Assembly: GCF_041248615.1 (NCBI RefSeq)
Contig: NZ_CP158426.1
DNA length: 64,000 bases
Reading direction: 5' to 3' (one strand)
From: Escherichia coli
GTDB taxonomy: Bacteria > Pseudomonadota > Gammaproteobacteria > Enterobacterales > Enterobacteriaceae
Translations under genes and position numbers: made by a program
Part shown: piece by piece, positions 10,525-13,305 of the stretch
How positions within the stretch are numbered: the first letter of the stretch is position 1
Layout of the letters: every line of letters starts with the position of its first letter
Notes under the pieces: model-generated
The model's input: only the letters and a program-made list of their open reading frames with translations
Told to the model about the DNA's origin: nothing
The model's database searches: none

Positions 10525-12495
10525 ATGTATATGAATGTAATCAGAACTGTCATTTGTACATTAATTATAGTCCCGGTGGGACTACAGGCAGCGACCAGTC
10601 ATTCTTCTATGGCTAAAGATACAATCACCATTGTCGCGACAGGAAATCAGAACACGGTATTTGAAACGCCGTCGATGGTCAGTGTCGTCACGAATGACAC
10701 ACCGTGGAGTCAGAATGCGGTTACATCGGCCGGCATGCTGAAAGGTGTTGCCGGTCTCAGCCAGACTGGTGCAGGACGGACCAATGGGCAGACCTTTAAT
10801 CTACGCGGCTATGACAAAAGCGGGGTACTTGTTCTTGTTGACGGCGTCCGCCAACTCAGTGACATGGCAAAAAGCAGTGGCACTTATCTGGATCCGGCTC
10901 TTGTCAAACGTATCGAAGTTGTCCGCGGGCCAAACTCCAGTCTGTACGGCAGTGGCGGGCTGGGAGGTGTAGTGGACTTCAGAACTGCCGATGCAGCAGA
11001 TTTCCTTCCCCCCGGAGAGACAAACGGTTTAAGTCTGTGGGGAAATATTGCCAGTGGTGACCACAGCACAGGCTCGGGGCTCACCTGGTTCGGTAAAACC
11101 GGAAAAACAGATGCGCTCCTTTCTGTCATTATGCGTAAAAGAGGTAATATCTATCAAAGTGATGGTGAGCGCGCACCTAACAAGGAAAAACCTGCAGCCC
11201 TGTTTGCGAAAGGCTCTGTCGGTATAACAGACAGTAACAAAGCAGGTGCCAGCTTGCGTCTCTACCGGAATAACACCACTGAACCGGGCAATCCCACTCA
11301 GACACATGGTGACAGCGGCCTGCGTGACAGAAAAACAGTACAAAATGACGTACAGTTCTGGTACCAGTACGCTCCTGTGGATAACAGCCTCATCAATGTA
11401 AAGTCAACGTTATATCTCAGTGATATCACTATCAAGACAAACGGTCACAACAAAACGGCAGAATGGAGAAACAACAGAACCTCCGGTGTTAATGTTGTCA
11501 ACAGGAGTCATACTCTGATTTTTCCGGGAGCCCATCAGTTAAGTTATGGCGCTGAATATTACCGTCAGCAGCAGAAGCCAGAAGGCTCTGCCACACTATA
11601 TCCGGAAGGAAATATTGACTTTACATCGTTGTATTTCCAGGATGAAATGACAATGAAAAGCTACCCTGTTAACATTATCGTCGGTTCCCGCTATGACCGG
11701 TACAAGAGCTTCAATCCCCGTGCCGGAGAACTGAAAGCCGAACGCCTGTCCCCAAGGGCGGCGATTTCAGTCTCACCGACAGACTGGCTGATGATGTACG
11801 GCTCCATATCCTCTGCATTCCGAGCGCCCACAATGGCAGAAATGTACAGGGATGATGTACATTTTTACCGCAAGGGTAAACCCAATTACTGGGTTCCTAA
11901 CCTTAATCTGAAACCAGAAAATAACATCACCCGTGAGATTGGCGCAGGTATTCAACTGGATGGCCTGCTTACAGACAATGACCGGCTGCAGTTAAAAGGC
12001 GGATATTTCGGAACGGATGCCAGAAACTATATTGCCACACGCGTGGATATGAAACGGATGCGTTCTTATTCTTATAATGTATCCCGGGCCCGTATCTGGG
12101 GATGGGATATGCAGGGAAATTACCAGTCTGATTATGTTGACTGGGTGCTTTCTTATAACCGGACGGAAAGTATGGATGCCAGCAGCAGGGAATGGCTGGG
12201 CTCCGGCAATCCTGACACACTTATCAGTGACATCAGCATACCTGTTGGTCATAGAGGCGTTTATGCCGGATGGCGTGCTGAACTTTCAGCATCAGCCACG
12301 CATGTGAAAAAAGGCGACTCCTATCAGGCTGGCTATGCCATACATTCCTTTTCACTGTCTTATAAGCCTGTAAGTGTTAAAGGCTTTGAGGCGTCAGTAA
12401 CTCTGGATAATGCCTTCAACAAGCTTGCCATGAATGGCAAAGGTGTGCCGCTTTCAGGCCGAACTGTCAGTCTTTATACCCGTTATCAGTGGTAA
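10525..12495 (+). CDS. TonB-dependent outer-membrane receptor
   Basis: 656 aa; signal peptide, TonB-box-like DTITIVATG, plug-domain motifs (VLVLVDGVRQ, RIEVVRGPNSSLYGSGGLGG), long beta-barrel region and terminal aromatic residue (…YTRYQW). Confidence 0.8.
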   Translation: MYMNVIRTVICTLIIVPVGLQAATSHSSMAKDTITIVATGNQNTVFETPSMVSVVTNDTPWSQNAVTSAGMLKGVAGLSQTGAGRTNGQTFNLRGYDKSGVLVLVDGVRQLSDMAKSSGTYLDPALVKRIEVVRGPNSSLYGSGGLGGVVDFRTADAADFLPPGETNGLSLWGNIASGDHSTGSGLTWFGKTGKTDALLSVIMRKRGNIYQSDGERAPNKEKPAALFAKGSVGITDSNKAGASLRLYRNNTTEPGNPTQTHGDSGLRDRKTVQNDVQFWYQYAPVDNSLINVKSTLYLSDITIKTNGHNKTAEWRNNRTSGVNVVNRSHTLIFPGAHQLSYGAEYYRQQQKPEGSATLYPEGNIDFTSLYFQDEMTMKSYPVNIIVGSRYDRYKSFNPRAGELKAERLSPRAAISVSPTDWLMMYGSISSAFRAPTMAEMYRDDVHFYRKGKPNYWVPNLNLKPENNITREIGAGIQLDGLLTDNDRLQLKGGYFGTDARNYIATRVDMKRMRSYSYNVSRARIWGWDMQGNYQSDYVDWVLSYNRTESMDASSREWLGSGNPDTLISDISIPVGHRGVYAGWRAELSASATHVKKGDSYQAGYAIHSFSLSYKPVSVKGFEASVTLDNAFNKLAMNGKGVPLSGRTVSLYTRYQW

Positions 12496-12513
12496 CCTCT
12501 CAGGAAATAAATC

Positions 12514-13305
12514 ATGATGAAAAATACAGGCTATATCTTAGCTCTTTGTCTGACAGCATCGGGGCATGTCCTGGCCCATGATGTCTGGATTACCGGCAAA
12601 CAGGCAGAGAACAACGTTATCGCAGAGATTGGTTATGGTCATAATTTCCCCTCAAAGGGCACGATTCCTGACAGAAGGGATTTCTTTGAAACTCCCCGGC
12701 TTTATAACGGGAAAGAGACAATAACGCTGAAGCCAACATCCACGGATTATGTCTATAAAATTGAGTCTGCAGGCAACGGTAATAGCTACGTTCTGTCAAC
12801 GAAAATGAAACCGGGATACTGGTCGAGAACCTCGTCAGGATGGAAGCCTGTCAGCCGGGAGGGCAGAAATGATGTGGCATACTGTGAGTTTGTGACTAAA
12901 TATGCAAAATCTTTTATTCCTGGTGAACAGCAGATGCCAGCACAACTCTATCAGTATCCAATAGGGGATGAGCTTGAAATCATTCCGTTATCCGATATCA
13001 GTCGTTTCGGTGAAGATGTGAAGCTGAAAGTTCTGTATAAAACTTCCCCGCTTGCCGGAGCCACTCTGGAGCTTGACTCTGTCAGTTATCTGAAATCATC
13101 CCGCCATACTCATGCGGCAGAGCATAAACATTCGGCTCATAAAGCAGAACTTACCTTTGTAAGTAATGAGGACGGTATCATCACTGTACCCTCCCTTCAT
13201 GTCGGGCAATGGCTAGCTAAAGTCAAAAATAAGAAAGTATTTCAGGACAAAAACCTGTGTGATGAAACTGTCGATGTGGCAACCTTAAGCTTCTCCCGAA
13301 ATTAA
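12514..13305 (+). CDS. periplasmic His-rich protein, likely partner of the TonB-dependent receptor (DUF4198-like, tentative)
   Basis: 263 aa, AGGA ribosome-binding site and ATG 19 bp after the receptor stop; signal peptide MMKNTGYILALCLTASGHVLA; His-rich stretch SSRHTHAAEHKHSAHK. Family name is from memory. Confidence 0.5.
   Translation: MMKNTGYILALCLTASGHVLAHDVWITGKQAENNVIAEIGYGHNFPSKGTIPDRRDFFETPRLYNGKETITLKPTSTDYVYKIESAGNGNSYVLSTKMKPGYWSRTSSGWKPVSREGRNDVAYCEFVTKYAKSFIPGEQQMPAQLYQYPIGDELEIIPLSDISRFGEDVKLKVLYKTSPLAGATLELDSVSYLKSSRHTHAAEHKHSAHKAELTFVSNEDGIITVPSLHVGQWLAKVKNKKVFQDKNLCDETVDVATLSFSRN

Follow-up and report, generated by a model that had tools for sequence, protein, structure and literature searches.

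Introduction

TonB-dependent receptors under the control of Zur are already known, and so are metal-binding proteins of the DUF4198 family. ZnuD/TdfJ and TdfH of Neisseria and ZnuK/ZnuL of Caulobacter are TonB-dependent receptors which stand behind a Zur operator, and TdfH/TdfJ and ZnuK/ZnuL provide the precedent, as they are required for growth when zinc is limiting. For the Enterobacteria, outer-membrane zinc transport was described as undefined in a 2013 review. Here, we analysed a two-gene unit of Escherichia coli, in which a TonB-dependent receptor gene is followed by a DUF4198 gene, located in a 64,000-nucleotide (nt) stretch of contig NZ_CP158426.1 (assembly GCF_041248615.1), hereafter called the window. 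We consider it fairly probable that this pair is a Zur-repressed outer-membrane zinc-acquisition module. The role proposed here is thus that of the Neisseria and Caulobacter receptors, although these belong to another receptor lineage and a DUF4198 partner in one operon has not been described for them.

The uncharacterised status of DUF4198 was ended in late 2025 by two papers. In Neisseria gonorrhoeae, the periplasmic homodimer Zcp (NGO1049) is regulated by Zur and binds one zinc per subunit via His29, His31 and His142 (PDB 9MHI-9MHO; PMC12663993). Proteins of the Zcp type (DUF4198 'cluster 1') are characterised by a submicromolar zinc affinity. IsDUF4198 of Ideonella sakaiensis, described as a 'non-canonical histidine brace' (9GCB; PMC12537917), binds Ni2+ with a Kd of 18 nM and in the order Ni > Zn > Co, using its N-terminal His and His18. 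In addition, a DUF4198 gene lies beside a haem-family TonB-dependent receptor in Caulobacter (CC2193(CCNA_02275)-CC2194), and this pair is strongly metal-regulated, although by Fur and iron and not by Zur.

Results

Zur box in front of the receptor gene

The two genes lie on the same strand and encode proteins of 656 and 263 amino acids (aa) (Table 1). Identical coordinates were found in RefSeq NZ_LT599825.1 (E. coli NRZ14408 chromosome, 96001-160000), where the receptor is WP_001313270.1 and the DUF4198 protein is WP_000977396.1. An earlier note made from the letters of the window (the sequence-only reading) had already taken the two open reading frames (ORFs) as one unit of a TonB-dependent receptor and a 263-aa signal-peptide protein, and both the coordinates and the domains bear this out, except that the spacer, given there as 19 bp, has 18 nt (cctctcaggaaataaatc).

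The same reading had pointed to the region 10400-10525 as a place for regulator boxes, and there a Zur box was found, and Fur and NikR boxes were not. The site is a 23-bp palindrome of 10-3-10 form, AAAATGTTAT-GTT-ATAACATTTT, and the 3' end of the box lies about 20 nt before the receptor ATG. Using the consensus of Gilston et al. 2014, it matched the structure-based pattern TGWNAYRWTATAWYRTNWCA at 19 of 20 positions and GAAATGTTATA-N-TATAACATTTC at 19 of 22, and fitted the RNNNYRNNRYNNYRNNNY skeleton completely. It also showed one mismatch to a 21-mer consensus, for which 0 matches are expected by chance. Within the 64 kb the site is the only one of its kind, the runner-up scoring 14/22, and its score of 19/22 was higher than that of all 1000 promoter shuffles (maximum 17). 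Particularly, its 16-nt core TGTTATGTTATAACAT (10485-10500) is identical to the Zur operator in the hlyII haemolysin promoter of the uropathogenic E. coli strain J96, and the flanks of the two sites are unrelated. Binding of Zur to the hlyII operator was proven by electrophoretic mobility shift assay, and it was tighter than to znuABC in gel shifts (PMC5916954). Two island-borne virulence-associated loci therefore have the same strong Zur site in common.

Control by Fur and by NikR was also considered, and both were rejected. With up to three mismatches allowed, the Fur 19-mer was matched nowhere in the window, and its best match in the promoter (11/19) equalled the shuffle median, so that none was above chance; for NikR, no box was found in the promoter. 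The presence of a Zur box without a Fur or NikR box narrows the substrate towards zinc, and, judging from the promoter sequence, it is very likely that the pair is under Zur control. A sigma-70 promoter candidate was read whose -10 element lies inside the Zur box (Table 1). The consensus promoter scan did not call this candidate, the -35 of which matches at only 3 of 6 bases, and instead gave TTAACA-N18-CATAAT; if the latter is the promoter, the Zur box is located just downstream of the transcription start.

Conservation of the pair and its Zur site

The receptor and DUF4198 genes are also adjacent in an island of the type of pathogenicity island (PAI) III536 (L003) and in strain 536 (L055), on IncF plasmids (L002), in a further E. 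coli variant (L010), on Klebsiella plasmids (L007-L009), in Salmonella enterica subsp. diarizonae (L004, L005, L025), in Providencia rettgeri (L006) and on two metagenomic contigs (L012, L013). Each of eight loci (L001, L003, L004, L005, L006, L010, L011, L025) has a single copy of the strict Zur core TGTTAT-N3-ATAACA, always immediately 5' of the receptor, and these include the Salmonella diarizonae and Providencia loci, whose proteins are only 40-52% identical to those of the window. The core is also present 5' of two close DUF4198 homologues without a linked receptor (L014, L015). The IncF copy reads TGATAT-GTT-ATAACA with the palindrome kept, and one metagenomic contig (L013) has the symmetric variant TGATAT-GTT-ATATCA. 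On the latter contig, a four-gene ABC transporter of the ZnuA family (substrate-binding protein, ATPase and two permeases; 382-3825) lies directly 5' of the pair, and the Zur-like palindrome is TGATATGTTATATCA.

When we extended the comparison to a distant set of 38 DUF4198 loci with 24-32% identity, taken from a species-level genome scan, an adjacent TonB-dependent receptor on the same strand was present in only 4 of the 38, and the Zur core was present in none of the 38 apart from Salmonella diarizonae. Linkage to a receptor and possession of the Zur box thus characterise a close enterobacterial subfamily, and receptor pairing as a general feature of DUF4198 was rejected.

Among complete E. 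coli genomes, 1123 of 5426 (~21%) carry an identical or near-identical pair, with 819 plasmid and 424 chromosomal copies, and 30 Klebsiella plasmids carry it as well. The ratio of nonsynonymous to synonymous substitution rates (dN/dS), calculated against four variants, was 0.12-0.34 for both genes, which indicates purifying selection, and both ORFs are intact; these are not chance ORFs but a genuine unit that is being maintained. As a separate observation, the DUF4198 gene diverges more than the receptor gene (dS 0.21-0.49 vs 0.03-0.09 for the window vs L002, L003, L007 and L010). For example, L010 and the window share 97.7% identity in the receptor and only 75% in the DUF4198 protein, and this unequal divergence points to recombination in which the partner gene is exchanged.

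A ChuA-like receptor with an altered plug ligand

The receptor matched the Pfam N-terminal Plug domain PF07715 with 84.1 bits and the C-terminal 22-strand barrel domain PF00593 with 128.3 bits, both above the cut-offs. A profile check of receptor subfamilies, which the sequence-only reading had suggested, gave 414.1 bits for the haem/haemoglobin receptor model TIGR01785 (cut-off 316.85) and 314.6 bits for the sister model TIGR01786, just under its cut-off of 323.75. The ZnuD model (NF038289) gave 46.7 bits against a cut-off of 950, and a zinc piracy receptor of the ZnuD type was rejected. The nearest solved relatives are ChuA (9DHE, E=1.9e-166) and ShuA (3FHH), which align over the full length at 42% identity. 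On sequence grounds it is a paralogue of ChuA and ShuA, which it resembles in size, in the FRAP motif and in the TonB box (DTITIVA, residues 32-38, aligned with ETMTVTA of ChuA/ShuA).

The two differ at the haem ligands. We take His86 of the plug and His420, located between the FRAP and NPNL boxes, to be the axial haem ligands of ShuA. The His420 equivalent is kept in the window receptor as His446, and the NPNL box reads NLNL, but the position of His86 is occupied by Lys116, so that only one of the two ligands is kept. This exchange is shared by all eight DUF4198-linked receptors of the clade (8/8), in the motif M-[A/D]-K-[S/G]-S. In further contrast to ChuA/ShuA, the pair has a Zur box and not a Fur box, a DUF4198 gene is always attached, and a chu-type haem-utilisation operon is missing; no haem-utilisation genes (chuS/T/U/V-like, chu/hmu/hut) were found beside the pair in any locus examined.

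A DUF4198 partner without the Zcp zinc site

The DUF4198 assignment, also proposed as a check by the earlier note, was obtained with PF10670 (88.6 bits, cut-off 34). The protein matched Zcp (9MHI) at full length, with E=2.8e-22 in a single-sequence search and E=3.9e-81 with a profile, and it matched IsDUF4198 (9GCB) with E=6e-24 with a profile and about 16% identity. The AlphaFold2 model has a predicted local distance difference test score (pLDDT) of 91.3, and its only real Foldseek matches were these two solved periplasmic metal-binding proteins of the family, Zcp with a template modelling (TM) score of 0.73-0.84 and IsDUF4198 with 0.65/0.79. With Zcp, the protein has in common the family, the fold, the upstream Zur box, the predicted periplasmic location and a Cys pair, as Cys124/Cys249 align with the disulfide pair C127-C250 of Zcp and are kept in about 80% of the homologues. 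The differences are that the Zcp zinc ligands H29, H31 and H142 are missing, that His43 stands where Zcp has Glu, and that the gene is operonic with a receptor gene, whereas zcp is monocistronic. A zinc triad of the Zcp type was rejected for the window protein.

A different candidate site was found at the N-terminus. The signal peptide comprises residues 1-21 (..VLA/HD..), and the predicted cleavage gives a mature protein that begins with His22. Using homologues gathered by exhaustive protein search, since a word-index search reached few of them, His22 was invariant (112/112) and His43, in the motif GYGHNFP, was kept in 101 of the 112. Both align with the Ni-binding His1/His18 of IsDUF4198, with which the protein shares the post-cleavage N-terminal His, the second His and the beta-sandwich fold. 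IsDUF4198 differs in that it has no His-rich loop and in that its genomic links are to NikR and not to Zur.

The internal His-rich loop of the window protein (five His) is unlike Zcp and also unlike the C-terminal His tail of Zcp 'cluster 2'. The sequence-only reading had regarded this histidine cluster as metal-binding, and the cluster is indeed present, but only its composition is conserved: in the closest relatives, 4-8 His stand at this position without sequence conservation, and at least three His are found there in only 18 of the 112 homologues. The model confidence of the loop is also below that of the rest of the structure. Probably the loop is not the primary metal site, and the conserved site is His22/His43. 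The conservation of its histidines in composition and not in sequence fits a metal-collecting arm rather than a fixed site.

We also noted that the crystallised Zcp constructs (9MHI, residues 1-24) have about 24 extra residues before the conserved His. With these additional residues the His-brace site could not have formed in the Zcp experiments, and the extension may bear on the question of the physiological site.

Third gene and surroundings of the pair

In E. coli FDAARGOS_1258 (L003, the PAI III536-type island), the DUF4198 gene is followed by a gene for a 399-aa CobW/COG0523 GTPase (12125-13324). Its best NCBIfam match was the zinc metallochaperone ZigA (187 bits, under the cut-off), and it gave 86 bits with the CobW equivalog model (cut-off 332). 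As a side observation, the protein apparently has no canonical CxCC metal motif (..NNFVSITSDS..). The three-gene form was found in 235 E. coli genomes, vs 1123 with the pair; the two-gene form without CobW is the commonest, and it is found on hundreds of IncF plasmids. Homology of the window to the three-gene form ends where the IS66 DNA begins at 13419, about 150 bp short of the expected COG0523 start, which shows that the COG0523 gene was lost from the window locus. From this alignment, the window unit is a truncated form of the three-gene cluster. For strain CFT073, a transposon sequencing (Tn-seq) screen of mouse bacteraemia gave c1267, annotated as cobW, among the candidate fitness genes. 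From the gene order, c1265 and c1266 are presumably the receptor and DUF4198 genes, c1267 being the only one of the three that is confirmed.

The pair sits on an island beside tRNA-Sec (selC), with ISEc31, an insertion sequence (IS) of the IS3 family, upstream and IS66 downstream, in agreement with its earlier description as IS-flanked island cargo. The hairpin directly 3' of the DUF4198 stop codon is also kept in the three-gene variant, and it is possibly a terminator or attenuator, though no T-run follows it. A tyrosine integrase gene adjoins selC and forms the island boundary, beyond which lie the core genes yicJ and yicI. Further cargo of the selC island is a 1165-aa autotransporter with VirG insertion, pertactin and autochaperone domains and a beta-barrel. 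Typical CP4-44/PAI backbone remnants lie upstream of the pair, namely a gene for a 294-aa YeeP-like GTPase and, after it, a WYL-domain gene that is interrupted by an internal stop.

Table 1. Positions of the receptor-DUF4198 pair, its sites and its surroundings in the window.
Feature	Position	Strand	Basis or remark
Promoter of the consensus scan, TTAACA-N18-CATAAT	10436-10465		
Sigma-70 promoter candidate, TTGCAT-N16-TATAAC	10471-10498	+	read directly from the sequence; -10 inside the Zur box
Zur box (predicted)	10481-10504	+	palindrome 10481-10503; 20-mer structure-based match 10485-10504
TonB-dependent receptor gene	10525-12495	+	656 aa
Lys116 codon	10870-10872		in place of His86 of ChuA/ShuA
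His446 codon	11860-11862		His420 equivalent
AGGA Shine-Dalgarno of the DUF4198 gene	12502-12505	+	within the 18-nt spacer
DUF4198 gene	12514-13305	+	263 aa
His22 codon	12577-12579		predicted mature N-terminus
His43 codon	12640-12642		GYGHNFP
His-rich loop SSRHTHAAEHKHSAHK	13096-13143	+	residues 195-210, 5 His
Hairpin CCTGCCC-N10-GGGCAGG	13316-13339	+	directly 3' of the DUF4198 stop codon; also kept in the three-gene variant
Upstream flank, ISEc31 (IS3 family) transposase with programmed frameshift	9018-10231	+	ORFs, RefSeq annotation
Upstream flank, integrase-core IS remnant	10242-10358	+	ORFs, RefSeq annotation
Downstream flank, IS66-family end (typical GTAAGCG...), then IS66 tnpA/tnpB	13419-14609	+	alignment with L003, annotations
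YeeP-like GTPase gene, then WYL-domain gene	6775-8542	+	
Autotransporter gene	19313-22810	+	1165 aa
Tyrosine integrase gene	24003-25187	-	adjoins selC
tRNA-Sec (selC)	25487-25581		

Discussion

The second protein of the pair belongs to a metal-binding family and is linked to the receptor in other genera, and together with the Zur box this supports the earlier suggestion of a metal-uptake cassette. For the working of the pair as a zinc-acquisition module, we propose the following mechanism, in which we infer Zur repression, zinc transport and the hand-over to ZnuA. When zinc is sufficient, Zn-Zur would bind the palindrome, which overlaps or abuts the promoter, and silence both genes, and under zinc starvation, caused for example by host calprotectin or TPEN, the operon would be derepressed. 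The receptor, which would have been recruited from the ChuA/ShuA haem-receptor clade with the exchange of the plug haem ligand from His to Lys, would use TonB energy to move zinc over the outer membrane, either as the free ion or bound to a host or chelator ligand. The DUF4198 protein would be exported by its Sec signal peptide, the cleavage of which would leave His as the first residue, and would capture periplasmic metal at His22 (by amine and imidazole) and His43, with the His-rich loop as a collecting arm; it would then buffer the zinc or hand it to ZnuA/ZinT-ZnuBC. In fuller loci the gene for a ZigA-like COG0523 GTPase follows the pair, and here this gene was lost via IS66. As for the transported species itself, the balance of the evidence leans towards zinc.

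Several observations weigh against this proposal. Its sequence marks the receptor as a genuine haem/haemoglobin receptor subfamily member, above the TIGR01785 cut-off, and it keeps the FRAP box and the equivalent of His420. Its match to the ZnuD model is confined to the plug region, and a surface loop rich in His or Asp was not seen in its sequence. On the side of the partner, all three zinc ligands of Zcp are missing, the aligned stretches KQAENN and PGEQQ having no His, and a site of the His-brace type preferred nickel in the sole protein measured (IsDUF4198, PMC12537917). Zcp was dispensable for zinc import (PMC12663993), so that a DUF4198 partner may buffer zinc instead of delivering it. 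The regulatory site is also not intact everywhere: the Klebsiella plasmid copy (L007 3968-3990) has only the right half of the box, and in strain 536 (L055 ~49420-49445) the right half carries a C-to-T exchange, and these copies may escape from full Zur repression. Finally, in Caulobacter the DUF4198 gene adjoins a hemin receptor under Fur control, which means that the pairing of a receptor with DUF4198 alone does not imply zinc.

The main competitor of a zinc module is a haem/haemoglobin receptor, corresponding to the 'HmuR-like haem receptor' of PAI III536, which would take up haem for iron, with Zur serving as a cue for the host site and the DUF4198 protein as an accessory. Such a function is favoured by the TIGR01785 score, by the identity to full-length ChuA with FRAP and His420 retained, by the Caulobacter pair and by the strain 536 orthologue, which lies at the described position of the HmuR-like receptor. 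In addition, the J96 hlyII haemolysin is itself controlled by Zur, and zinc limitation can therefore cue haem-releasing functions. Against it, there is no Fur box above chance, the plug His86 is Lys across the whole clade, and no locus examined has haem-utilisation genes beside the pair, although none of these three points is decisive. Moreover, what the characterised relatives of the partner bind are ions of Zn, Ni, Co and Cu, with no report of haem binding, and the label of haem receptor is based on homology alone. Weighing these points, we regard haem uptake as unlikely. If the pair instead took up nickel or cobalt, or a metallophore-bound form of them, as a substitute metal under zinc scarcity, the Ni2+ affinity of the His1/His18-type site in IsDUF4198 would be accounted for, as would the DUF4198 genes near TonB-dependent receptors and NikR in other bacteria and the CobW family membership of the third gene in fuller loci. 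Zur-regulated clusters of Pseudomonas aeruginosa are reported to import cobalt-pyochelin. But the promoter has a site of the Zur type and no NikR box, the CobW-like protein matches ZigA best and falls far under the CobW equivalog cut-off, and the closest solved relative of the partner, in both sequence and fold, is the zinc protein Zcp, which makes nickel or cobalt quite improbable as the substrate.

A last alternative is that the pair has no present function and is a decaying passenger of the island, left between IS elements after the loss of the third gene. It is indeed surrounded by IS debris, the COG0523 gene is deleted, and some copies are truncated or interrupted by an IS (H49, H53). With both ORFs at full length, the low dN/dS, the retained Zur box and the predominance of the two-gene form, which hundreds of IncF plasmids and a total of 1123 genomes have kept, we consider decay very improbable.

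In the full-text literature, with subscription journals and supplementary tables outside the search, we found no study of the E. coli pair, and a prior description is possible. The search gave no more than the Tn-seq entry for c1267 and the name 'HmuR-like haem receptor', a label based on homology. In the literature that could be searched, a receptor of the ChuA clade with an altered plug ligand, operonic with a DUF4198 protein without the Zcp site and placed behind a Zur site in Enterobacterales, has not been described. We tentatively suggest that the pair could represent the first TonB-dependent importer dedicated to zinc in the outer membrane of E. coli and related bacteria, in which a haem receptor was re-tooled by the change of the plug His to Lys and combined with a zinc-capture partner of a new DUF4198 type. 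Just as the parental ChuA docks onto haemoglobin, such a receptor might take its zinc from a protein of the host.

Among host defences, the withholding of zinc by calprotectin is a major one. If the zinc-acquisition module is real, about one fifth of sequenced E. coli would have an additional route for zinc scavenging, carried by pathogenicity-island strains of extraintestinal pathogenic E. coli, by IncF plasmids, including those of sequence type 131 (ST131), and by a few Klebsiella plasmids, and a zinc importer would have spread unnoticed under the label of a haem receptor. The receptor is surface-exposed, and proteins of this type serve as vaccine antigens, so that a wrong substrate label is of consequence. 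The DUF4198 family would also gain a second architecture, in which a histidine-brace site and a His-rich loop are combined in a protein that is operonic with a receptor.

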